Shown: piece by piece, positions 8,621 through 50,189 of the stretch
Numbering within the stretch: the first letter of the stretch is position 1
Layout: the number at the start of each line of letters is the position of its first letter
Origin: Candidatus Gottesmanbacteria bacterium
GTDB lineage: Bacteria; Patescibacteriota; Microgenomatia; 2-02-FULL-39-11
Direction: 5' to 3'
DNA: 64,000 nt
Assembly: GCA_016186795.1 (NCBI GenBank)
Contig: JACPKY010000002.1
Span: 716,943-780,942 of the forward strand
Notes under the pieces: model-generated
Databases searched by the model: none
What the model was told of the DNA's origin: nothing
What the model saw: only the letters and a program-made list of their open reading frames with translations
Translations under genes and position numbers: made by a program

Positions 8621-8966
8621 ACGCTTTTTAATAGGATTTATTTTCGGTAGTATTTTTGCGCTATTTTTTATTCTCTTTTTCGGATCAAAAAATGGACGCA
8701 GCCTTCTTGAGAAGCTTCTTGATGATGAAGAAGCGTTCGAAAAATCTTTGAGAGGAAAACTTTTGGAATTTCGTAACTTTGGTAATAGACGTATCCTTCC
8801 TTCCGATCATATCCAATCTCCTCTTAACGATCTTTCGAAGAACGACAGTGCATTTATGAAGAATCTATCTGCTGATTTTCCCCAGTCCAAGGAGGAAAAA
8901 CGGCTCTCGTTTACAAAATCAATGAAACATTTTTTTAAGAAAAACGGGAAAATCCTCACTTCCTAG
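8601..8966 (+). CDS. YtxH-like small membrane protein
   Basis: RFLIGFIFGSIFALFFILFFGSKNGRSLLEKLLDDEE resembles the YtxH-family N-terminus (GfllG...APksG). Confidence 0.4.
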   Translation: MEIDQSKRFLIGFIFGSIFALFFILFFGSKNGRSLLEKLLDDEEAFEKSLRGKLLEFRNFGNRRILPSDHIQSPLNDLSKNDSAFMKNLSADFPQSKEEKRLSFTKSMKHFFKKNGKILTS

Positions 8967-9456
8967 GAAGTCTCGTTTGGAGTTCTACAATCGATTCATC
9001 CATAACTCTCAATATCTCCTGAATGATTGATTCAGCCTCAGAGAAAGAAAGTGCTCGGAAGTTATGAGGGAAATAATGGAATACGAGATTTCTCCCCTGT
9101 TTCCAAATCGACCACATGCGATCGGCCAGAATTCTGTCGCCTGTTGCTTCAACAACCTTGTCATAAATAGATTCCCATCGAAGATGTTTTTCTAAGTGTG
9201 GGTTTAAAGCTCTCCCAATTCTGAAGTGATCACCACCATACTGTTCCTTCGTAATAAAAGAACAATCAAGAAATAACTGTTTTAGAAATCCTTCATATGC
9301 CTTGGCAAATGGAAAAACAACGTAGGAATAATCGGATATTTCTAACCGAGGATGTTCAGTTATGTCGTGAAGGAGAAATAATCCTTCCTTTATCAATCCC
9401 TTTTGATTCGGAGAAAGGTATTCCCAAATACGTGCGTTTTCATCTATCTCAACCAT
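8956..9456 (-). CDS. Hypothetical protein; possible HEPN-fold (RNxxxH) domain
   Basis: 166 aa, all-alpha in character, with a C-terminal ...WSIWKQGRNLVFHYF... giving an R-N-x3-H motif reminiscent of HEPN/Abi2-type RNases. No partner gene is recognised. Confidence 0.3.
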   Translation of the reverse strand: MVEIDENARIWEYLSPNQKGLIKEGLFLLHDITEHPRLEISDYSYVVFPFAKAYEGFLKQLFLDCSFITKEQYGGDHFRIGRALNPHLEKHLRWESIYDKVVEATGDRILADRMWSIWKQGRNLVFHYFPHNFRALSFSEAESIIQEILRVMDESIVELQTRLPRK

Positions 9457-9530
9457 ATTTGTCGTGCTTTCCTAAATCTTTCGACTGAAATATCCGAATA
9501 TCCACCAATTCCATTGTATCAAATGAACAA

Positions 9531-10793
9531 TTACGCAAGGAGTTTGGAAACAATATGGGGAAGCGTCGTTCCCTGAACATTTCGAAGAAATTTTTCCTTT
9601 GATGGAAGAATATTTTCTGGATCTTTCAATATATGCCCAGTAAGTACACCGACGACAACATCACTCTTTTTAATGATAGTTTTTTTAACGAGCTTTTTTA
9701 TTCCGGCAACACATGTTGCCGATGCTGGTTCACAACCAATACCAGATGTGTCAATTATTTTTTTTGCTTCAAGTATTTCTTGGTCGGTAACCTCTTCAAC
9801 AACTCCATTGGTTTCCAAAATTGCCTTCTTTGCCCGTAAGAAACTCACTGGATTTCCAATTTTGATTGCAGAAGCAAGAGTGTCTGCATTCATTGTATGA
9901 CGATACTTAAAATCTCCTTTGTAACTTCTGTAAAAAGGATTCGCTCCATGGGCTTGAATAACAGCAATACGTGGAAATTTATCTATGATCCCTACCTCTT
10001 TTAAATCTTTAAGCCCTCTCCCTAGGCTTGAGGCATTCCCTAAGTTTCCGCCAGGCAAAACAACCCAGTTGGGAATTTTCCAGTTAAGCTGCTGTAGAAG
10101 TTCGTAAACAATTGTTTTCTGACCTTCAAGTCTTAATGGATTAATAGAGTTAAGTAGATAGATGTGAAATTGGTTACAGATTTTCTCAACTATACTCATT
10201 GCTTCGTCAAAATCACCATCAATTTCTATATTTGTTGCACCATACGCAATCGATTGCGCAAGCTTTGAGGAAGAAACTCTTCCTTTTGGTAAAAAGACAA
10301 AGCATGGGATCTCGGCTAGTGCTGCATAGGAAGCAAGCGAAGAAGACGTATTTCCAGTTGAAGCACACGCAACAGCTTTCACTCCAAGAAGTTTTGCGTA
10401 GGATATTCCAACCGTCATTCCTCGGTCTTTAAAACTTCCTGTAGGATTTTCACCTTCATGTTTCAAGTATAAAAAATCTACATTCGTAAATTTTCCGATT
10501 TTGTTTGAAATCGATTTCCCCACATTGTAAAGATTTGTATTCCCTTCAGGACGAGTAATAATATATTTTCCATCAATTGGGAAAAGAAACTCTTTATATC
10601 TCCAAACACCACTCTGATAAGGAAATTGGCGACTCTTCCATCTTGTATCAAAAAGTTTGGTAGAAATTTTTCCTTTCAAAGATAGAAAATCACTCCGCTC
10701 AACTTCCAGAACTTCTCCGCAATCACAACGGTATCTGATTTTGCTAAAATCAAATTTTTTATCGCAAGAAACGCATCGAAGAAAAATGATCAT
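9531..10793 (-). CDS. thrC: Threonine synthase (with N-terminal Zn-ribbon)
   Basis: The PLP motif HEGENPTGSFKDRGMTV, an N-terminal CxxC...CDC ribbon, and the fold-type II PLP enzyme layout. Confidence 0.85.
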   Translation of the reverse strand: MIIFLRCVSCDKKFDFSKIRYRCDCGEVLEVERSDFLSLKGKISTKLFDTRWKSRQFPYQSGVWRYKEFLFPIDGKYIITRPEGNTNLYNVGKSISNKIGKFTNVDFLYLKHEGENPTGSFKDRGMTVGISYAKLLGVKAVACASTGNTSSSLASYAALAEIPCFVFLPKGRVSSSKLAQSIAYGATNIEIDGDFDEAMSIVEKICNQFHIYLLNSINPLRLEGQKTIVYELLQQLNWKIPNWVVLPGGNLGNASSLGRGLKDLKEVGIIDKFPRIAVIQAHGANPFYRSYKGDFKYRHTMNADTLASAIKIGNPVSFLRAKKAILETNGVVEEVTDQEILEAKKIIDTSGIGCEPASATCVAGIKKLVKKTIIKKSDVVVGVLTGHILKDPENILPSKEKFLRNVQGTTLPHIVSKLLA

Positions 10794-10794
10794 A

Positions 10795-11418
10795 TCACTC
10801 TTTTATAAGATTAACAAAATTCTCAACGTCAAAATTATTTTTTCTCAGTAGAAAGTAATCCAGTGTTATATCAGCAATTCTTTCATATTCCTTTCTTCTA
10901 TATGCCAACAGTTTGGGATAATTCCGCTTAAGAGCTGATATATCGGTCTCATCCTGCCGTTTATTAAAACTTTCACCCCACACGACGGGCTTTGGTTCTT
11001 TGAGATAGGACGTATACATTTCGTCTTGAACTTTGTATGGAGTATCCAAATATATAATTTTTGTATTATTTTTCAATTTTTTCAAAATAGTAAAACCCGT
11101 ATATATGACACTTCCTGTTGTATCTATAACAACAGCTCTATCAGCATAATCACTGTTTACTTGATCGATGAATTTCTCAAGAGATTCTTTTTCAAATTTT
11201 AAATATTTTTTACTATTGCTTTGATATCTTTCCTCATATGGTTGACCTAGCCATTTTGAAACATCTGAAATACCCCTATAGCCTAATTTTTTTAGAACAC
11301 TTCCTAATTTATATTCTATATAATCATCACAGCAGAGCTTAATATATCCATATTCCTCCAATTTCTCCGACCAAAAGGTTTTACCTGAATTAGACATGCC
11401 AATAAGAGAAAGCTTCAT
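10795..11418 (-). CDS. P-loop NTPase/kinase of unknown specificity, embedded in the thr operon (candidate non-orthologous homoserine kinase)
   Basis: Walker A GMSNSGKTF is followed by a small kinase-like fold of 207 aa. Its start overlaps the asd stop by 4 nt, and its own stop abuts the thrC start. Confidence 0.5.
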   Translation of the reverse strand: MKLSLIGMSNSGKTFWSEKLEEYGYIKLCCDDYIEYKLGSVLKKLGYRGISDVSKWLGQPYEERYQSNSKKYLKFEKESLEKFIDQVNSDYADRAVVIDTTGSVIYTGFTILKKLKNNTKIIYLDTPYKVQDEMYTSYLKEPKPVVWGESFNKRQDETDISALKRNYPKLLAYRRKEYERIADITLDYFLLRKNNFDVENFVNLIKE

Positions 11419-12491
11419 ATATATCCTTTATTTACAAGTAATTCTGCCAAAAGTATTGCACCACCTGCGGCACCTCTAATTGTGTTGTGTGACAAGGCAA
11501 TAAATTTCCAATCAAAGTGTTTATCTTCTCGTAGTCGACCCATGGAAATTCCCATACCGTTCTCCAAATTACGATCGAGTTTACTTTGAGGTCTATTTTC
11601 TTCTTCAAAGTAATTGATAAATTCCCTGGGGGCGGATGGTAAGTGTAACTTCTCTATTGGATTTTTATAATTTTTTATTGCGCTAAGTAGCTGTTTCTTT
11701 GATGGTTTTATTCCAAAAGAAACAGAGACACTTGTCATATGTCCATTTGAAGAAGGTATGCGGATACATGTTGCCGATATCTCTGGTTTTTTTGCCAGTG
11801 CAATTTTATTGCTTCTTATTTTCCCCCAAATTTTAAGCGGCTCTTTCTCTGATTTTTCCTCCTCGCCGGCAATATTGGGAATAACATTATCAACCATCTC
11901 CGGCCAACTATCAAACGTTTTCCCAGCGCCTGATATAGACTGCATGCTGACTACATGGACCTTTTGAGGTTGAAATTTATGAAGAGTGGTAAGTATGGAT
12001 ACATACGACTGGATAGAACAATTGGGTTTAACAACAATGAATCCTTTTTTCCAACCGCGATTTTTCCTTTGAACATCGATAAGTTTTATGTGTTCAGGAT
12101 TAATTTCCGGCATAATCATAGGAACATCTTCTACCCAACGATTGGTTGAATTATTGGAAACTACAGCCATATTTTTTGATGCATAATATTCCTCAATCTT
12201 TTTGATCTGATTCTTTTCCAAATCCAGAGCAGAAAATACCAAATCGACACGCCTTACAATCTCATCAATATCTTCCTCAACAGATTGGATAACTACATTC
12301 TTAAGTGTTTTTGGAATTTCTTTATCAATTTTCCATCTTCCTTTTACAGCTTTTTGGTATATTTTTCCTTTTGAGGCAGGTGATGCTGCTAAAGCAACTA
12401 CTTCAAACCAGGGATGGTTGGCCAAAAGAGTAGCAAACCTTTGACCCACCATACCTGTGGCGCCTAATATACCGACTCTGATTTTTTTCAT
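11415..12491 (-). CDS. asd: Aspartate-semialdehyde dehydrogenase
   Basis: N-terminal GATGMVGQRF Rossmann motif, the active-site Cys region VVKPNCSIQ, and a 4-nt overlap with the upstream hom gene. Confidence 0.8.
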   Translation of the reverse strand: MKKIRVGILGATGMVGQRFATLLANHPWFEVVALAASPASKGKIYQKAVKGRWKIDKEIPKTLKNVVIQSVEEDIDEIVRRVDLVFSALDLEKNQIKKIEEYYASKNMAVVSNNSTNRWVEDVPMIMPEINPEHIKLIDVQRKNRGWKKGFIVVKPNCSIQSYVSILTTLHKFQPQKVHVVSMQSISGAGKTFDSWPEMVDNVIPNIAGEEEKSEKEPLKIWGKIRSNKIALAKKPEISATCIRIPSSNGHMTSVSVSFGIKPSKKQLLSAIKNYKNPIEKLHLPSAPREFINYFEEENRPQSKLDRNLENGMGISMGRLREDKHFDWKFIALSHNTIRGAAGGAILLAELLVNKGYI

Positions 12492-13525
12492 AGCACTCCT
12501 CCAATAGTTAATATGTCGCCAAATACTCCAGATGCAGTCACGAAAGGACCAGCACCGGGGCCCTTAATCACAAGAGGTTGAGATAAATAATATTTGGTAG
12601 TAAAGATGACTATATTATCTGGTCCCGTCAGAGTCCCAATATCATTCTCTTTTTCTACCTCTCGTAGTCCTATTGTGCAATTTTTTTTAGAAATATCGGC
12701 TACAAAACGGAGTACTTTATTTTTCTTTTTAGCTTTTTTAAATTTTTCAATATAAAGACTATCAAGTCGAACTATATGTGTCATAAATTCATCTACGGTA
12801 AATTTTTCATACTCTGGTGGGTAAAGCTTTTTTATTTGTATATCTTTCATTTCTATTTTTTGTCCAATCATCCGGGCAAGGATGATTACTTTCCTAGCCA
12901 CATCATTTCCTGATAGATCCTCTCGCGGATCAAATTCGGTGTATCCAATCTTTCGGGCAATTCTGACCGACTCAGAAAAAGACTTTCCTTCCTCTATTGA
13001 TGAACAGATAAATCCAAGCGTCCCACTGAAACAGCCAGTAATACTAATTATTTCATCGCCTGTAGCAAGGAGTGTTTTTAACGTTCGAATAACAGGCAGT
13101 CCTGCCCCGACTGTAGTTTCATGAAGTATTTGATTGGGTTTAAAAGAATGTAGCAACTTATATTGTGTATATGGACCTGCAAGCGGCCGTTTGTTTGCAA
13201 GAACAACTGATGCCCCTTTTTGCAAAGCGTGATAGAGAAATGGAAAAGTAGCATCGGATGCGGTGAGATCTAAAAGAATAAATGAGGAATTGACTTTATT
13301 GATAACATTCTTTATTTCTGCATTCATTTTTGCTGGAAAATTTCGTATTTCTTGATTTGATAAACCGTTATCGGAAAATATTCCCCCTTTACTGTTAAAT
13401 AGACCATAGTAACAGATATCAATGTTGAATCGTTTTTTAATACCATTTTCCCCTCGAGTGATTTGACCAATGAGTGCTTTGCCGACATTCCCTACTCCTA
13501 ATTGAATCAGTTGAATTTTTTTCAT
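12488..13525 (-). CDS. hom: Homoserine dehydrogenase
   Basis: IQLIQLGVGNVGKALIGQI Rossmann motif. It overlaps the upstream aspartokinase gene by 4 nt. Confidence 0.8.
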   Translation of the reverse strand: MKKIQLIQLGVGNVGKALIGQITRGENGIKKRFNIDICYYGLFNSKGGIFSDNGLSNQEIRNFPAKMNAEIKNVINKVNSSFILLDLTASDATFPFLYHALQKGASVVLANKRPLAGPYTQYKLLHSFKPNQILHETTVGAGLPVIRTLKTLLATGDEIISITGCFSGTLGFICSSIEEGKSFSESVRIARKIGYTEFDPREDLSGNDVARKVIILARMIGQKIEMKDIQIKKLYPPEYEKFTVDEFMTHIVRLDSLYIEKFKKAKKKNKVLRFVADISKKNCTIGLREVEKENDIGTLTGPDNIVIFTTKYYLSQPLVIKGPGAGPFVTASGVFGDILTIGGVL

Positions 13526-14427
13526 GTCTTATTCCCTTGCCAAATTTTTGTGCCAGCAAGTTCTGGCCTGAAGGTATTTTTCACCCAAACCACTATTTTT
13601 TTGTCAATGATAGGCTCCAGGGCTTGAGGATGAAGAACTTTTGCACCATTCTTTGCCATTTCGGCTGCTTTTTTATAAGAAATTTCCGCTAAAAATCGTG
13701 CGCTTCCATTCTTTTTTGGATCAGCAGAAAAAACTCCATCTACTTCCTTCCAAAGAATAACTTCTTGAGCATCAAGAACGTGGGCAAGAATTGTTGCGCT
13801 GTAATCGGAACCACCCCGGCCAAATGTTGTGATCCGACCGTCAAGTGTAGCCCCAAAGTAACCTGTAAATACAGGAATAATTCCCTGAATAAGCATTGGA
13901 AGAAGTACACGCTCTGCCTGGTTACGCGTTTGGGGGATAAGTACCCGCGCATCACCAAATTTGTCAGTTGTGACAATGACCTTTGAGCTTTCAATAGGTT
14001 TTGCCGTAACTCCTAGGTTTTGTAATGCGCATGCAACGAACGTGCTACTTATTCTTTCACCATAAGAAACAATATGGTCGAATGCTTCTTTACCATAATC
14101 TCGGTGGAATGTTACATACGCTGTCAGTTGAGCAAAAAGTTGGGAAAGAGAATCAAAGAAAGAACACGGACCATTCTTATTTTTCTGAATTTCTCGTGCA
14201 ATATCAAAGTGAAAGTCATGTAAATCCTGAAGCTCCTTAACTCCATTCTCAATTTGATTGGCTTTATAATTCTGATATATTGAGATGAGACGATCAGTCA
14301 CTCCTAAAAATGCCGAAACAACAATAATAACTTTTTCCTCACGTGCAAAATTTTTTATAACACCTGCAACGTGATATATTTTTTGAGCGTCAGCAAGGGA
14401 CGCTCCTCCAAATTTCATAATTTTCAT
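13522..14427 (-). CDS. Aspartokinase, catalytic domain only (no ACT regulatory domains)
   Basis: MKIMKFGGASLADAQKIYHVAGVI... is the amino-acid kinase family signature. At 301 aa it is about 100 aa shorter than ACT-containing aspartokinases. An AAGGAA Shine-Dalgarno sits 8 nt upstream. Confidence 0.8.
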   Translation of the reverse strand: MKIMKFGGASLADAQKIYHVAGVIKNFAREEKVIIVVSAFLGVTDRLISIYQNYKANQIENGVKELQDLHDFHFDIAREIQKNKNGPCSFFDSLSQLFAQLTAYVTFHRDYGKEAFDHIVSYGERISSTFVACALQNLGVTAKPIESSKVIVTTDKFGDARVLIPQTRNQAERVLLPMLIQGIIPVFTGYFGATLDGRITTFGRGGSDYSATILAHVLDAQEVILWKEVDGVFSADPKKNGSARFLAEISYKKAAEMAKNGAKVLHPQALEPIIDKKIVVWVKNTFRPELAGTKIWQGNKT

Positions 14428-14508
14428 ACTTGTTTCCTTTCAATCAGCTTGCACTAAAGCTCCAGCAGATTATGCACCTCTGCATTCTCTCATCGGCAAG
14501 AGCTGCAT

Positions 14509-14535
14509 AAAAAAACCTCCCTTTCAGGAGGTCTC
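14509..14535 (-). terminator. Attenuator terminator hairpin (GAGACCUCC-UGAAAG-GGAGGU) followed by U7, on the minus strand
   Basis: The plus strand reads AAAAAAACCTCCCTTTCAGGAGGTCTC. The reverse complement gives a GC-rich stem followed by seven U residues, about 80 nt upstream of the aspartokinase ATG. Confidence 0.6.
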
Positions 14536-14566
14536 ATTTGCATCGACAATTATCTTATCGCATTAA

Positions 14567-14635
14567 CTACGAGACCTCCTTTGTGGAGGTAGTAGTGGTA
14601 GTAACAATAAGATTTCGCAAGCGACGTAAAACCAT
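14567..14635 (-). CDS. Threonine-operon leader peptide (22 aa: MVLRRLRNLIVTTTTTSTKEVS)
   Basis: Minus-strand ORF ATG GTT TTA CGT CGC TTG CGA AAT CTT ATT GTT ACT ACC ACT ACT ACC TCC ACA AAG GAG GTC TCG TAG. It carries five consecutive Thr codons, then Ser and another Thr. The codons overlap segment 1 of the attenuator, and the stop codon lies just 3' of segment 2. Confidence 0.55.
   Translation of the reverse strand: MVLRRLRNLIVTTTTTSTKEVS
14571..14590 (-). promoter_or_regulatory. Attenuator hairpin A (ACCUCC-ACAAA-GGAGGUCUC); its 3' arm is perfectly complementary (9 bp) to the 5' arm of the terminator, forming the antiterminator
   Basis: Segment 2 (GGAGGUCUC, plus coordinates 14571-14579) is the reverse complement of segment 3 (GAGACCUCC, plus coordinates 14527-14535). 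Segments 1 and 4 repeat ACCUCC and GGAGGU. Confidence 0.6.
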
Positions 14636-14645
14636 ATTTGGTACG

Positions 14646-14674
14646 ATTGTATAGAACCTATCCTTCGTTGTCAA
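14646..14674 (-). promoter_or_regulatory. Candidate promoter for the thr leader: TTGACA-17-TACAAT (minus strand), with the -10 placed 10 nt before the leader ATG
   Basis: Reverse complement of tgtcaa at 14669-14674 and of attgta at 14646-14651, separated by 17 bp. Confidence 0.45.
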
Positions 14675-14722
14675 CAATGTACTTATCATATATACTATCA
14701 TATCAATGCAAATCTATATACT

Positions 14723-16576
14723 ATGACCCATAAAGAAGTTAGAAAAAAATTTATCTCGTTTTATAAAGGAAAAAGACATGTAGAAATCCCATCGGCTTCC
14801 CTTGTTCCCGAAAATGACCCTACTACCCTCTTTACGAGTTCAGGCATGCAACCTCTTGTACCCTACCTTCTTGGGGAAAAACATCCTTCAGGTACACGTA
14901 TTGTTAATAGTCAAAAATGTTTCCGTGCACAAGACATAGATGAAGTGGGCGATAACAGGCATACAACATTTTTTGAAATGCTCGGCAATTGGTCACTTGG
15001 AGACTATTTTAAGGAAAATCAACTCCCTTGGTTTTTTGAATTTTTAACGGATGAATTACATCTTGATCCGAAGAGACTATATATAAGTGTTTTTGAGGGA
15101 AATGAATTTGTCCCAAAGGATAATGAATCCATTAAGATTTGGAAAGAACTCTTCTCCCAGGTTGGAATTGAGGCAAAAGAAGGAGAAAGAATTTTTTCGT
15201 ATGGTGTAGATAAAAACTGGTGGTCCCGCTCAGGTACACCAGACAAAATGCCTCCGGGTGAACCAGGAGGTCCTGACAGTGAGGTATTTTATGACTTTGG
15301 AATTGAGAGAAAATTCCATGAAAATTCTCCATGGAAAAATAAGCCTTGTCATCCAAACTGTGAATGTGGCCGGTTCTTAGAGATTGGAAATTCTGTATTT
15401 ATGGAATACCAAAAACAACAGAACGGAAGTTTTAAAGAATTACCGCAAAAAAATGTAGATTTTGGTGGAGGACTTGAGAGATTAGTTGCTGCAACGAATG
15501 ATAATCCTGATATGTTTCAAATAGATTTGTTTTCAACCGCAATTAAGACTTTGGAAGCTATTACCAAGACGCCTTCAAATTACAAAATACATCCGCGTCC
15601 TTACAGAATAATCTCTGATCATTTAAGAGCTGCAATTTTTTTGGTTGATAGCGGAGTAGAGCCTTCAAACAAGCTGCATGGATACGTTTTAAGACGCTTA
15701 ATAAGACGGGCAATGATCCAAGCAAGAGAATTAGGTATGATGGGTGATGAATGGCTTTCAAATGCAATCCCTGAGTTTATTTCCCAGTATTCTCAAATAT
15801 ACCCATCTGTTACGAAAAATACACCAGAAATCAATCAAGTCATTACTGCAGAAGTAGATAAATTCAGAAAAACTATAGATCGGGGCTTAAGAGAATTTGA
15901 AAAACTAAAAGATAACCAGCTTACTGGATCAACTGCATTTAATTTATACCAAAGTTATGGATTCCCTTTAGAAATTATAAAAGAGCTATATTTACAAAAA
16001 GGAGTGACTCTGAATGAACTAGAATTTAGCGAAGCGCAAAAAACTCATGCTAATCTATCAAGAAAAGTTACAAGTAGACTTTTTAAAGGAGGACTGGTTG
16101 ATCAAAGCGAAGCTGTCGTAAAACTTCATACGGCAACACATCTGCTACAACAAGCATTAAGAGAAGTATTAGGTAGTCACGTACGGCAAAAAGGCAGCAA
16201 TATTACAGCAGAACGTCTCCGTTTCGACTTCACTCATCCGGAAAAAATCTCAAATGAAACTATTGAAAAAATCGAACATCTCGTCAATAAAAAAATTGAT
16301 AAAAACCTGACAGTGTCGGTGGAAATCGTCCCGCTTAATAAGGCTATTGAAGAAGGAGCCCTAACCGTTCCGGGCACAACATACCCTGAACAGGTAAAAG
16401 TCTACTCTATTGGGAACTTCTCAAAAGAGGTCTGTGGAGGACCTCATGTTGACTTTACAGCTACCATAGGTTCGTTTAAGATAGTAAAAGAAGAGGGAAT
16501 TTCCCAAGGTGTAAGACGCATATACGCCAAAGTATCTTCTGATCATGTCAATACTAGGAAAAATCATGCCCAGTAG
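14723..16576 (+). CDS. alaS: Alanyl-tRNA synthetase (catalytic and editing domains; C-terminal C-Ala domain absent)
   Basis: N-terminal FISFYKGKRHVEIPSASLVP...FTSSGMQP...GNWSLGDYFK, and the editing-domain Zn motifs HTATHLL (HxxxH) and CGGPHV (CxxxH). At 617 aa it is well short of the ~875 aa full-length enzyme. Confidence 0.9.
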   Translation: MTHKEVRKKFISFYKGKRHVEIPSASLVPENDPTTLFTSSGMQPLVPYLLGEKHPSGTRIVNSQKCFRAQDIDEVGDNRHTTFFEMLGNWSLGDYFKENQLPWFFEFLTDELHLDPKRLYISVFEGNEFVPKDNESIKIWKELFSQVGIEAKEGERIFSYGVDKNWWSRSGTPDKMPPGEPGGPDSEVFYDFGIERKFHENSPWKNKPCHPNCECGRFLEIGNSVFMEYQKQQNGSFKELPQKNVDFGGGLERLVAATNDNPDMFQIDLFSTAIKTLEAITKTPSNYKIHPRPYRIISDHLRAAIFLVDSGVEPSNKLHGYVLRRLIRRAMIQARELGMMGDEWLSNAIPEFISQYSQIYPSVTKNTPEINQVITAEVDKFRKTIDRGLREFEKLKDNQLTGSTAFNLYQSYGFPLEIIKELYLQKGVTLNELEFSEAQKTHANLSRKVTSRLFKGGLVDQSEAVVKLHTATHLLQQALREVLGSHVRQKGSNITAERLRFDFTHPEKISNETIEKIEHLVNKKIDKNLTVSVEIVPLNKAIEEGALTVPGTTYPEQVKVYSIGNFSKEVCGGPHVDFTATIGSFKIVKEEGISQGVRRIYAKVSSDHVNTRKNHAQ

Positions 16577-18641
16577 TGAGTCGAAGGAGTACTTCCTTAT
16601 TCTTGGCATGGAAGAAAGGCGGATTACTGCAGCCGTTGCAAAGCTTTCTGGAAACGAAATTACAATTCTCGGAACAGGCGAGGGTGAATGGAATAAAGGA
16701 GATAATGCATCAGACGTTGCAGATATTGCTATTTCTGCTGCAGAAAAAAATCTAAAAGAGAGCGTCCTTCTTGAAAAAGTTATTTTTGGACTTCCCATAG
16801 ACTTTCTCGAAAATGATGCTATTAAACCGGAACATCTCGTAACGCTAAAAACAATTGCGAAGGAACTTGATTTAAAACCGAGTGGGTTTATTGAGTATCC
16901 TCAAGCATTTGCATACTACCTTGAATCAAAGGAAGGTTCTGCTCCAACACTTCTTCTCTTTTCAATAGGATCTACGGATATTACTGTCTCTCTTATCCGG
17001 GTTGGCAAATTAGAAAAAAATAGTACGCAACCTCGAAGCGAATCTTTCACTGACGATATAACCCGTATTGTCAATACTTTTAAGGATGAAATTCTTCCCT
17101 CTCGAATACTTATTTATGATCGGACACAAAAAGAGAATGTAGAAAATATTCGGGAGGAGCTATTACGATTCTCCTGGCATAAGTACTCATCATTTCTCCA
17201 TACCCCAAAAGTTGAGACACTCCCTGAAAATGTGGGAACTCTCGCTCTCGTTGAAGCAGCGGGAGGAAGTATCTTAAAATTGATGCAAGAGGAGATTGAG
17301 GAATCTCCTCCAAAAGATGAAAATTTCGGGTTTGTAAAGCATGCAGAAAAAAAGGGCACGTCGGAGAAAGAATTGGAAACTGAAATCGAGAAAAAAAGAG
17401 AGCCATTAAAATCTTTGCGAAATTTGCCTCTCCTTTCGAATCTTTTGGGAAACATCTCAAAAATTTCTCTCCCTAAACTGGCTCTCTTTGAATCTTTTTC
17501 AGGGAGAAAACTCTTTCTTATTATTCCATTCATTGTCCTTACTCTTTTTCTTGTTGCAATTGGAATGAGAATTTTTTTCTACTCCCCAAAAGCTGAAATT
17601 CATTTCATTACATACCCTATTTCGACATCAAAACGTATTGCGGTCCTGTTTACAACTGAATTGAATCGTTCTTCTGAATCAAACGTCATTATTGCAACTC
17701 CGATAAACGTTGAAACAAGTGGTGAAAAGGCTGTTGCAACAACCGGAAAATCAAAAATTGGAGAAGCCGCCAAAGGCGAAGTAACTATTTATAATAAAAC
17801 GCTTGCAGGAAAGACTTTTCCAAAAGGAATAATTCTCACAACCGACTCTCTACAGTTTAGCCTTGATCAAGATGTAAACGTCGCCTCTGCATCGGATACC
17901 GGAGAAGGACTTACATTTGGCAAAATAACATCGAAAATTACCGCGCGTGAGATTGGCCCGGAGGGAAATATACCGGCTGGTCGGAATTTTACATTCAAAG
18001 ATTTTCCTGAATCACAATATTATGCAAAAAATGTGGAAAAACTAACTGGTGGCACAAGCCGTGAAGTCTCAAGTGTGTCAAAAAATGATCAAGATGGACT
18101 CCTTACAGCTCTTTCTAACGAACTTATACAAAAGGCGAGACAGGAAATTACTGGTAAAATTCACCAAGATGAAAAGATACTTGATGCTTCAATGAAAGAA
18201 ACCGTTAAGAACAAAAATTACAACAAAGATGTTGGTGCTGAAGCAAAAGAATTAACTCTTCAGGGAACACTGGAACTTTCCGCACTTGTTTACAAAAACT
18301 CTGATATAACAATACTCTCGAGTACAAATCGATCGGAAATCCCATCAGGGTATACACTTGATACTCTACGAACTACTGTCCGAATTGGTGACGTAACGAT
18401 TGATAAAAAAGGTGATTATACAGGAGAAGCCTCGATTACTTCCTATTTCATCCCCTCGTTTGATATACCTTCACTCAAAGCGAAACTTGTTGGAAAATCT
18501 TACACGGATGTCAAGTCATTCCTTGCCTCTGTGGAAAACGTCGCTGGCTTTGAAATTGTTGCCTTTCAAACGCCACCGTTTTTTGGAAATAGACTCCCGC
18601 TCCGAAGAGATAACATCTCCATCTCTGTAGTCCCTCGATAA
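16545..18641 (+). CDS. Large bitopic membrane protein of unknown function (cytoplasmic N-terminal domain, one TM, about 350-aa extracytoplasmic domain)
   Basis: One TM (LFLIIPFIVLTLFLVAIGMRIFFY) at about residue 325 and an acidic linker. The N-terminal region weakly resembles the actin-like ATPase first motif (FLILGMEE...ITILGTGEG). The start may be the downstream Met at 16608, after the alaS stop. Confidence 0.35.
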   Translation: MSILGKIMPSSESKEYFLILGMEERRITAAVAKLSGNEITILGTGEGEWNKGDNASDVADIAISAAEKNLKESVLLEKVIFGLPIDFLENDAIKPEHLVTLKTIAKELDLKPSGFIEYPQAFAYYLESKEGSAPTLLLFSIGSTDITVSLIRVGKLEKNSTQPRSESFTDDITRIVNTFKDEILPSRILIYDRTQKENVENIREELLRFSWHKYSSFLHTPKVETLPENVGTLALVEAAGGSILKLMQEEIEESPPKDENFGFVKHAEKKGTSEKELETEIEKKREPLKSLRNLPLLSNLLGNISKISLPKLALFESFSGRKLFLIIPFIVLTLFLVAIGMRIFFYSPKAEIHFITYPISTSKRIAVLFTTELNRSSESNVIIATPINVETSGEKAVATTGKSKIGEAAKGEVTIYNKTLAGKTFPKGIILTTDSLQFSLDQDVNVASASDTGEGLTFGKITSKITAREIGPEGNIPAGRNFTFKDFPESQYYAKNVEKLTGGTSREVSSVSKNDQDGLLTALSNELIQKARQEITGKIHQDEKILDASMKETVKNKNYNKDVGAEAKELTLQGTLELSALVYKNSDITILSSTNRSEIPSGYTLDTLRTTVRIGDVTIDKKGDYTGEASITSYFIPSFDIPSLKAKLVGKSYTDVKSFLASVENVAGFEIVAFQTPPFFGNRLPLRRDNISISVVPR

Positions 18642-50156: not shown

Positions 50157-50189
50157 CAAAAAATCCCGAGGAGTCCTCGGGATTTTTTG
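50157..50189. terminator. Bidirectional rho-independent terminator downstream of groEL
   Basis: AAAAAATCCCGAGG-agt-CCTCGGGATTTTTT forms a 9-10-bp GC-rich stem flanked by an A-run and a T-run, between the groEL stop and the PEGA gene start. Confidence 0.7.

Follow-up and report, generated by a model that had tools for sequence, protein, structure and literature searches.

A predicted threonine-responsive leader-peptide attenuator upstream of the threonine operon in a Patescibacteria genome and its relatives

The 64,000-nucleotide stretch of Candidatus Gottesmanbacteria DNA analyzed here (the window) carries an aspartokinase (AK) gene at the head of a five-gene series on the minus strand, AK-hom-asd-(hsk-like)-thrC, which was identified by profile matches and agrees with the threonine operon that the original prediction had placed downstream of the leader. 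The intergenic region between this operon and alaS holds a promoter, a short open reading frame (ORF) with a run of threonine codons, and an intrinsic terminator, all on the minus strand (Table 1; coordinates are window positions throughout). The alaS gene is divergent, and therefore the terminator cannot belong to it. Judged from sequence and from modeling, we consider it highly probable that these parts form a functional threonine-responsive leader-peptide transcription attenuator, because the operon context, the four-segment logic of the RNA, its energetics and, above all, the conservation of the arrangement in relatives fit such a device.

The promoter, TTGACA and TACAAT at a spacing of 17 nt, lies just before the ATG of the short ORF (14674-14646), as had been predicted. 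With 11 of 12 positions it is the top sigma-70-like match within 9000-17000; the count of promoter-like matches in the region, 22, is not above the 23.2 obtained in shuffled sequence. The 10 nt between the -10 box and the ATG (CGTACCAAAT) are without a Shine-Dalgarno (SD) motif. The 22-codon ORF that follows contains the five consecutive Thr codons previously noted, directly preceded by Ile and Val codons, and a sixth Thr codon (Thr18, ACA) is found at 14584-14582. Between this ORF and the AK gene stands the intrinsic terminator, GAGACCUCCU-GAAA-GGGAGG and U7 at 14535-14509; its hairpin is calculated at -13.5 kcal/mol. Four segments can be delineated in the RNA, of which 1 and 2 form one hairpin (1:2), 3 and 4 form the terminator (3:4), and 2 and 3 form an alternative helix (2:3); the last two were said to be perfect 9-nt reverse complements, which we confirmed. 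Two details of the original prediction needed revision. The terminator tract, given there as GGAGGT with seven T residues, is actually GGAGG with seven (or GGAGGT with six), the GGAGG core of segment 4 being 14520-14516 and the U7 tract 14515-14509. The 1:2 hairpin is present, but its extent was understated: an outer helix between Thr codons and the stop codon and a 10-bp lower stem have to be added. Two other ORF assignments were tried and rejected. A longer in-frame ORF of 44 codons from the ATG at 14701 contains the promoter and is found in no relative but the closest, and a mini-ORF, AUG-CGA-UAA at 14562-14554, that might be started by the SD-like segment 2 has no corresponding AUG in the related locus L081.

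Table 1. Leader features, in order of transcription, and downstream genes in the window
Feature	Position	Strand	Remarks
-35 box TTGACA	14674-14669	-	Sequence inspection; promoter scan; TTGACA with 17-18 nt spacer seen in 10 relatives too
-10 box TACAAT	14651-14646	-	17-nt spacer from -35 box; 10 nt before leader ATG
Leader ORF, 22 codons and UAG stop	14635-14567	-	Encodes MVLRRLRNLIVTTTTTSTKEVS; ATG at 14635, TAG at 14569-14567
Lower-stem 5' arm of composite 1:2 hairpin, AUCUUAUUGU	14613-14604	-	Pairs with 14561-14552; folding
Five-Thr-codon putative regulatory run ACT ACC ACT ACT ACC (codons 12-16)	14602-14588	-	Sequence
Outer 1:2 helix, 5' arm ACUAC (Thr codons 14-15)	14596-14592	-	RNAalifold, folding
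Segment 1, ACCUCC (DNA ACCTCC; last Thr codon of the run and Ser codon)	14590-14585	-	Pairs with GGAGGU of segment 2
Segment 2, GGAGGUCUC (DNA GGAGGTCTC; codons 19-22)	14579-14571	-	Alternative partners: segment 1 or segment 3
Outer 1:2 helix, 3' arm G-UAG-U	14570-14566	-	Contains stop codon 14569-14567; RNAalifold, folding
Lower-stem 3' arm, GCGAUAAGAU	14561-14552	-	10-bp stem encloses whole 1:2 element
Segment 3, GAGACCUCC (DNA GAGACCTCC)	14535-14527	-	Terminator 5' arm; antiterminator partner of segment 2
Rest of terminator	14526-14509	-	U·G closing pair; GAAA loop 14525-14522; 3' arm GGGAGG 14521-14516
Spacer from terminator to AK start	14508-14428	-	81 nt; ends in weak SD AAAGGAAA for AK gene
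Aspartokinase (AK), 301 aa	13522-14427	-	Catalytic amino-acid-kinase domain only
Homoserine dehydrogenase	12488-13525	-	
Aspartate-semialdehyde dehydrogenase	11415-12491	-	
Homoserine-kinase-like protein, 207 aa	10795-11418	-	Between asd and thrC
Threonine synthase	9531-10793	-	TIGR00260, 279 bits
Putatively regulated operon AK-hom-asd-(hsk-like)-thrC	9531-14427	-	Profile matches; order syntenic in relatives

Folding of the 143-nt leader yields -46.4 kcal/mol (z = -5.15), with none of 200 shuffles as stable. In the window, the 2:3 helix extends beyond its perfect 9-nt core to 12 bp and reaches -22.1 kcal/mol; shuffles average -9.1, and none out of 200 matched the native value. When 14 elements, from the window and related loci, were folded one sequence at a time, the energies ranged from -10.5 to -19.3 kcal/mol for 1:2, from -10.9 to -25.1 for 2:3 and from -13 to -16 for 3:4, and the antiterminator 2:3 is generally predicted to be the strongest helix. 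Complementarity between segments 2 and 3 was found in all 14 of these elements, and for 10 of them no more than two of 200 dinucleotide shuffles equaled the 2:3 duplex. Where the stems differ in sequence, the segments have changed coordinately: L004 has CGGGCGG in segment 2, CCGCCCCG (CCGCCC) in segment 3 and GGGCGG in segment 4, and L005 has GGGGCAGG, CCUGCCCC and GGGCAGG, respectively.

We modeled the influence of a translating ribosome on these structures by masking the RNA from -18 to +12 nt relative to the A-site at each codon and computing how probable the terminator stem is at equilibrium in each of the 14 elements. As free RNA, 13 of them had a terminator probability of 0.96-1.0. With the ribosome at the stop codon the probability was 0.98-1.0 in all 14, and with the A-site on the Thr/Ile run it fell to approximately zero. 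Of the 62 Thr codons, 43 lie in the modeled antitermination window; among codons for other amino acids the number is 65 of 230 (Fisher p = 6e-9), and among Ile codons 21 of 29. The original prediction had proposed a free-energy test of whether 2:3 can compete with the terminator, and in the leader under study it does so once a stalled ribosome is modeled. Enforcing 2:3 in the free RNA gives -39.4 kcal/mol versus -43.2 for the terminator, a ranking that is reversed with the A-site on Thr12 (-35.3 versus -28.9) and Thr13 (-27.9 versus -23.0); on Thr14 or Thr15 the values are -26.2 and -25.3. From Thr16 onward the mask reaches segment 2, so no 2:3 structure is available, and the minimum-energy fold has the terminator at -24.6 kcal/mol (Thr16). 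According to the model, then, the first two to four Thr codons are the effective antitermination window, and the leader behaves energetically as a classical attenuator.

For comparison we collected every reachable AK of the type found in the Candidate Phyla Radiation (CPR) that had upstream DNA, which gave 16 distinct loci with AKs 42-72% identical: the window (with identical copies L083-L086), L081 (AK 72%), and L001-L005 together with L167-L175 (42-53%). Genomic assemblies with the window's locus derive from sequencing runs SRR12113383, SRR12113422, SRR12113424 and SRR12113430. L082 (AK 67% identical) was left out, its contig ending 78 nt upstream of the AK gene. A metagenome scan with a CPR AK profile added no CPR loci; the matches listed were AKs of at most 43% identity from other phyla, and these were used as detector controls. 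All 16 CPR-type loci carry a Thr-rich short ORF upstream of AK, followed by a complementary segment 2/segment 3 pair and then by a G+C-rich hairpin with 6-9 U residues. The leader peptides have 15-26 residues and nothing in common but a Thr/Ile run, Ile usually adjoining the Thr codons, as the examples MSLTHVQSLIVTTTTTSNGGVS, MKLRNKQINIMVTTTGSP, MLKGKSFIIVTTTIGPSLKEVS, MVAPKLSIIITTITPFNGR, MDSTNRNLITTTTTSPSWREVS, MKNMNNFEYTTTTTTQLIWERL, MKSANIVLTTTTTPF and MKNIVIKELTTTTTPTMG illustrate. ATG is the start codon in 16/16 and UAG the stop codon in 15/16, the latter because the ACUAC:GUAGU helix includes the stop. Thr accounts for 73 of the 330 leader codons (22.1%) compared with 5.8% in the long genes of the window (binomial p = 3e-23), with all four ACN codons in use, and Ile is marginally enriched (10.6% versus 8.0%, p = 0.05) but clustered beside the Thr run. 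Compared with L081, the window has synonymous differences at three of the five positions of the Thr run, and all seven N-terminal codons differ non-synonymously. In the L001 leader ORF (L001:5876-5947, a Gottesmanbacteria genome) an in-frame UAA occurs four codons before the ancestral ...GEVS-UAG, with the RNA segments intact; a ribosome halting at this UAA would still cover segment 2.

What lies upstream of the leader varies by locus (alaS, thrS, tRNA genes, toxin-antitoxin genes, a serine hydroxymethyltransferase gene and others), and therefore the element travels with the AK gene; the distance from terminator to AK start varies as well, from 5 to 231 nt among the relatives. A generic detector, requiring a short ORF with at least three Thr in six codons and a hairpin with T5 within 75 nt, was positive at 19 of 167 AK loci but at only 2 of 959 control windows. 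Its positives comprised every CPR-type locus then fetched except L005, whose element was found by eye, plus L059 and the two metagenome contigs L136 and L139. Within the 64 kb, the element is the only terminator-like site that follows a short ORF with five identical residues in a run. These figures bear directly on the suggestion that the terminator is a chance occurrence, or a constitutive terminator or insulator between divergent promoters, and that the small ORF is accidental. Short ORFs are abundant in AT-rich DNA, and the promoter-like matches, as noted, do not exceed the shuffle expectation. Yet a terminator that was always active would shut down the five biosynthetic genes behind it, the combination of parts is kept in 16/16 loci despite their differing upstream neighbors, and neither the control rate of the detector nor the Thr enrichment suits an accident. 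The comparative data effectively refute this suggestion, to which we assign next to no probability.

Outside the CPR clade, the detector-positive locus L059 (Marinicella litoralis) has a gammaproteobacterial thrL-type leader upstream of a short AK, and the contigs L136 and L139 (AK 37-39% identical) have Thr-rich leader ORFs and terminators before short AK genes as well; MYRSFVTTTTTMTTTPRGEEAS and MQNQTTTSTTLITTLQILVMC are example peptides from this group of three.

It might be asked whether the small ORF encodes a functional micro-protein, acting for example in trans, whose Thr-rich sequence matters for the peptide instead of for stalling. Trans-acting leader peptides are known, such as rhizobial peTrpL (PMC7298713), and a C-terminal ...KEVS, ...REVS or ...GGVS recurs in several of the leaders. 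This recurrent C-terminus, however, coincides exactly with segment 2 (GGAGGUNUCG-UAG), so RNA pairing explains it; beyond the Thr/Ile run these peptides of 15-26 residues share no sequence, and L001 retains its RNA segments in spite of the early in-frame UAA. We therefore give a micro-protein hardly any credence.

Structural conservation was assessed on a covariance-model alignment, as plain MAFFT alignments placed the helix arms one column out of register between subgroups. The model (R1) was built from five sequences and encodes the terminator-state structure only. It finds one match per CPR locus (13 of 14), exactly one of them in the 64-kb window, and also recognizes L174 and L175, neither of which was used in building it; the most divergent element, L005, is missed even with filters off. 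In the R1 alignment, which is fitted to the 1:2 and 3:4 helices, these are 87.7% paired versus 52-64% in slid registers, and twelve pairs change on both sides; none of 500 shuffles attains the observed values in this structure-fitted alignment. The terminator helix taken separately is 94.7% paired with six pairs changed on both sides. For 2:3, to which the alignment is not fitted, the proper register is 81.3% paired versus 45-62% in slid registers. The Thr-codon/stop-codon helix was recovered by RNAalifold even on the plain MAFFT alignment and is kept in 13 of 14 sequences, and lower stems analogous to that of the window are seen in several relatives.

An alternative reading is a translation-independent RNA switch, in which a ligand, uncharged tRNA-Thr in the manner of a T-box, or a protein selects 2:3 or 3:4 and the ORF is a by-product of pairing constraints. 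The Thr codons ACUAC do sit in a conserved helix with GUAGU, and some of the ACN codons could thus reflect structure; the leader ORF is without an SD; and related CPR genomes carry Thr-specifier T-boxes at the same locus. Against this, all 16 loci have an intact ORF with an ATG start in the frame that specifies Thr, when the other frames would yield Leu or Tyr. Thr codons unfit for the ACUAC pairing also occur (ACC ACC AUU ACC in L004, ACA ACA ACU ACA ACA in L171 and L173, ACG in L081), the N-terminal residues drift as Thr identity is kept, and the position of the Thr run coincides with the antitermination window of the footprint model. No conserved aptamer-sized structure lies between the segments. 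A scan against Rfam, which the original prediction expected to return no riboswitch family, gave none at gathering score, and the window has no match to a riboswitch or T-box model. We regard a switch of this type as very improbable.

Very unlikely, too, in our estimate, is control at the level of translation or mRNA stability, whereby the structures would gate the AK start or the access of RNases and the hairpin with its U residues would terminate poorly. Segments 2 and 4 are perfect SD-like sequences, segment 3 resembles the 3' end of 16S rRNA, and in L001 and L172 the AK start is only ~12 nt past segment 4. Intrinsic terminators are moreover rare in the window, so the efficiency of termination in this lineage is uncertain. 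Against such gating, the AK start in the window is 81 nt beyond the U-tract with a weak SD of its own, the terminator-to-AK distance varies across the whole 5-231 nt range noted above, and the stems of L004 and L005 are non-SD in sequence. A G+C-rich stem followed by 6-9 U, kept in 16/16 loci, is the signature of an intrinsic terminator and not of an SD-sequestering hairpin.

The preferred explanation, attenuation by a leader peptide, also has to account for the way in which translation of the ORF begins. Transcription usually begins ~7 nt past the -10 hexamer. A promoter of the form TTGAC(A/G)-17/18-TAnnnT ends 7-15 nt before the leader ATG in 10 of the 16 loci (the window, L081, L001-L005, L168, L169 and L173), and because the ATG comes 7-15 nt after the -10 hexamer and the start ~7 nt after it, the leader ORF would lie at or near the 5' end of the transcript in most members; the distance from -10 to ATG is 22-23 nt in L167 and L170. 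In the window, the promoter geometry implies a 5' untranslated region (UTR) of ~0-4 nt, which would make the leader ORF leaderless or near-leaderless. No SD-like motif was present between -22 and -4 of the leader ORF in any of the 16 loci.

Transcription would thus start at the AUG or a few nucleotides before it, and a ribosome would load on the (near-)leaderless 5' end and trail the RNA polymerase. With Thr-tRNA plentiful, it would pass the Thr run to the UAG and cover segment 2, so that 3:4 pairs and the hairpin with U7 releases a transcript of ~125-130 nt ahead of the AK gene. If no ribosome were engaged, the long 1:2 hairpin would sequester segment 2 and the terminator would form too. When Thr-tRNA, and possibly Ile-tRNA, is scarce, a ribosome would stall on the first Thr codons and melt or occlude segment 1, leaving segment 2 free to pair with segment 3 once the latter is transcribed. 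The resulting helix of 9-12 bp, stronger than the terminator, would block termination and let the polymerase read into AK-hom-asd-(hsk)-thrC. This is the four-segment, thrL-like control logic put forward in the original prediction, and it is supported by the footprint model, the energetics and the conservation taken together. The analysis demonstrates the anatomy of the sequence, its conservation, its energetics and its footprint behavior in silico; from these we infer where transcription starts, that the ORF is translated, that the U-tract terminates transcription and that threonine governs the outcome.

Several observations weigh against this interpretation. Leaderless or SD-independent initiation of the leader is assumed, and in L171, L174 and L175 the ORF comes after a T-box terminator and is thus internal, not 5'-terminal. 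Modeled with the footprint, antitermination in the window is favored at Thr codons 12-15 only, and by no more than 0.9 kcal/mol at codons 14-15; the modeled antitermination window of L004 and L172 falls on Ile instead of Thr codons and is marginal; and the free RNA of L001 favors 2:3 at equilibrium, with a terminator probability of 0.02. The model itself is an equilibrium one whose outcome depends on the assumed leading edge at +12 nt. The p-values given above are optimistic, as the sequences are related and phylogenetically non-independent. Finally, formal covariation in 2:3 is not above that of shuffles, 115-235 of 500 of which reach it. Of the conserved Thr-codon run and covarying stems expected in relatives, the Thr-rich ORF is seen in 16/16 loci and covariation in 1:2 and 3:4, in an alignment fitted to them, but not in 2:3. 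The GGAGG/CCUCC core is largely conserved, and for this reason, together with the non-significant covariation, the support for 2:3 consists of conserved complementarity and energy.

The operon downstream of the leader plausibly encodes the complete pathway from aspartate to threonine, as far as can be told from its sequence. The AK aligns to positions 5-286 of a 442-position AK model and has no ACT domains, in accordance with the original prediction, and a short catalytic-only AK (281-330 aa) is common to the whole CPR-type clade. Because the enzyme is without ACT regulatory domains, feedback by the end product may act mainly through the attenuator. Among named organisms, the AK has its closest relatives in Candidatus Gottesmanbacteria and other Patescibacteria, and the G+C content is ~39%. 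The 207-aa protein encoded between asd and thrC weakly matches the Desulfovibrio-type homoserine kinase NF040667 (E = 2.4e-7; 30.8 bits with a cutoff of 197) and has a borderline match to DUF7790 too. Since a canonical GHMP homoserine kinase fills the same operon slot in L167, L169 and L170, this gene probably specifies a non-orthologous homoserine kinase.

Some features of the neighborhood are recorded here in their own right. The palindromic TTGTCAACA (14668-14674) holds the overlapping, back-to-back -35 hexamers of the two divergent promoter candidates; the one for alaS, on the plus strand, is TTGTCA-17-TATACT with its TTGTCA at 14668-14673. The alaS start at 14723 is without an obvious SD, and the encoded AlaRS is short (617 aa). 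An ORF of 698 aa (16545-18641, plus strand), in which a weak Baseplate_J-like domain is recognized, shares 32 nt with the 3' end of alaS; it is syntenic in L081 and L083 and is an odd neighbor for a housekeeping aminoacyl-tRNA synthetase (aaRS) gene. Directly downstream of thrC is a HEPN/RNase LS-like (RnlA toxin-like) gene (8956-9456, minus strand) that is conserved in L082:2885-3415. Strong intrinsic terminators are very few in the 64 kb; one of them is a strong bidirectional terminator-like palindrome, AAATCCCGAGGAGTCCTCGGGATTTTTT (50161-50185, -16.2 kcal/mol), between convergent genes. Folding of the 81-nt spacer after the attenuator's terminator gave no second structured element (z = -0.13). 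In L167:2050-2246 and L169:2416-2500, the sequence between terminator and AK start is shared, AGAGTT..TGAA..ACTCT..CAAATGGTGAGGA..CGAATCCAT, and may be a second regulatory element; it has no match in Rfam and is absent from the window.

CPR bacteria, uncultured and with reduced genomes, are believed to depend largely on hosts for building blocks, and to our knowledge almost nothing is known of their gene regulation. On balance we incline, with some reserve, to the broader view that CPR in the neighborhood of Gottesmanbacteria and Microgenomates have a lineage-wide and undescribed family of SD-less, probably leaderless Thr attenuators with pairing between UAG and Thr codons, which would replace the lost ACT feedback, would in some genomes be stacked behind a Thr T-box, and would imply tight transcription-translation coupling. 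The variant features of such a family would be the SD-less, probably leaderless initiation and the stop codon that pairs with Thr codons. We found no literature linking CPR or Patescibacteria with leader peptides or attenuators, which is weak evidence as most subscription journals were outside the search; the Thr leaders are the first well-supported cis-regulatory attenuator family that we were able to document for CPR. If the attenuator is real, the clade makes its own threonine and regulates its synthesis, transcription and translation are closely coupled in CPR cells, as the mechanism could not work otherwise, and the sensor ORF uses an SD-independent or leaderless route of initiation. The compact family of ~125 nt is absent from Rfam and could join annotation pipelines. 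Mechanistically the finding is textbook; it is of value for its taxonomic and evolutionary breadth and introduces no new principle.

Among known regulators, leader-peptide attenuators have been documented for Proteobacteria, Actinobacteria and Firmicutes, with predictions for Deinococcus (PMC2965389, PMC1262725, PMC5794164, PMC4007540); the documented ones include those of Corynebacterium ilvBNC, trp and leu, S. aureus ilv and Bacillus hisS (PMC1262725, PMC2965389, PMC5794164, PMC10272879). The original prediction called attenuation mostly a proteobacterial matter; given these reports from Actinobacteria, Firmicutes and Deinococcus (PMC2965389, PMC1262725, PMC4007540) it is not essentially so, and the CPR finding is therefore less surprising than was implied. 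The actinobacterial and Firmicutes systems demonstrate that ribosome-mediated attenuation of the classical kind occurs beyond Proteobacteria and has arisen repeatedly without sequence homology, but they serve other amino acids and operons, and no CPR system or leader for Thr and aspartokinase is among them. Leaderless leader peptides have been predicted from mapped transcription start sites (TSSs) in Deinococcus deserti (PMC4007540), and mycobacteria have leaderless polycysteine upstream ORF (uORF) attenuators (bioRxiv 10.1101/834739). In them, as is predicted for our leader, a short regulatory ORF without an SD opens the transcript or nearly so and precedes genes for amino-acid biosynthesis or an aaRS. 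Their TSSs were mapped experimentally, whereas leaderless status here is deduced from promoter spacing alone; they concern a different amino acid and lineage, and the mycobacterial Cys uORFs work largely without a canonical intrinsic terminator, unlike the leader in the window.

Thr T-boxes (RF00230; the thrS/thrZ/hom type of Firmicutes) likewise sense the charging of tRNA-Thr and have a terminator/antiterminator output, but they bind the tRNA directly, whereas the leader would sense it through the translating ribosome. RF00230 has no match in the window. Reduced T-boxes were found by local searches in L171:2209-2397 and L175:2148-2338 (47-52 bits with a gathering score of 93; E ~1e-9 to 1e-10), and a closely similar T-box sequence, read by eye only, is present in L174 at ~2130-2310. 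All three have a Thr specifier (ACU or ACC) and their own terminator, and the leader ATG directly follows the T-box U-tract; the T-box here supplements the leader peptide instead of substituting for it. Such a tandem for one amino acid was not found in our literature search, with most subscription journals outside it, and the arrangement is absent from the window. In the relatives it would place two different sensors of tRNA charging one behind the other, a serial arrangement found in nature. Separately, a T-box-like motif, AAGGTGGTACCGTG, with structured sequence occurs on the reverse strand at ~5590-5800 of L001 (a Gottesmanbacteria genome), upstream of the divergent alaS; it has no Rfam match at gathering score, and alaS in the window has no room for such an element.

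The closest analog is the E. coli thr attenuator (thrL; RF00506), with which the window leader has no detectable homology: the Thr_leader model gave no match in 14300-14800 even at E <= 10. In general, neither the window nor any of 13 related loci has an Rfam match that reaches gathering score. Weak matches to Phe_leader (19.9 bits with a gathering score of 55), His_leader and sroH were rejected, as they cover the generic terminator hairpin only. The leader peptide of E. coli thrL has 21 residues and is Thr-rich with adjacent Ile. The E. coli leader is preceded by a 5' UTR of the conventional kind, including an SD, whereas the window leader is SD-less and begins 10 nt past its -10 box; the pairing of the UAG stop with Thr codons is a further difference from thrL. 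The enzymes differ too, ThrA being a Thr-inhibited fusion of AK and homoserine dehydrogenase, whereas the AK of the window is monofunctional and without ACT domains, and the host here belongs to the CPR/Patescibacteria, close to Gottesmanbacteria. What the two have in common is the position upstream of an AK-led threonine operon, a Thr-rich leader of ~20 codons with Ile codons beside those for Thr, the four-segment logic in which 1:2 and 3:4 exclude 2:3, and an intrinsic terminator with a U-tract.

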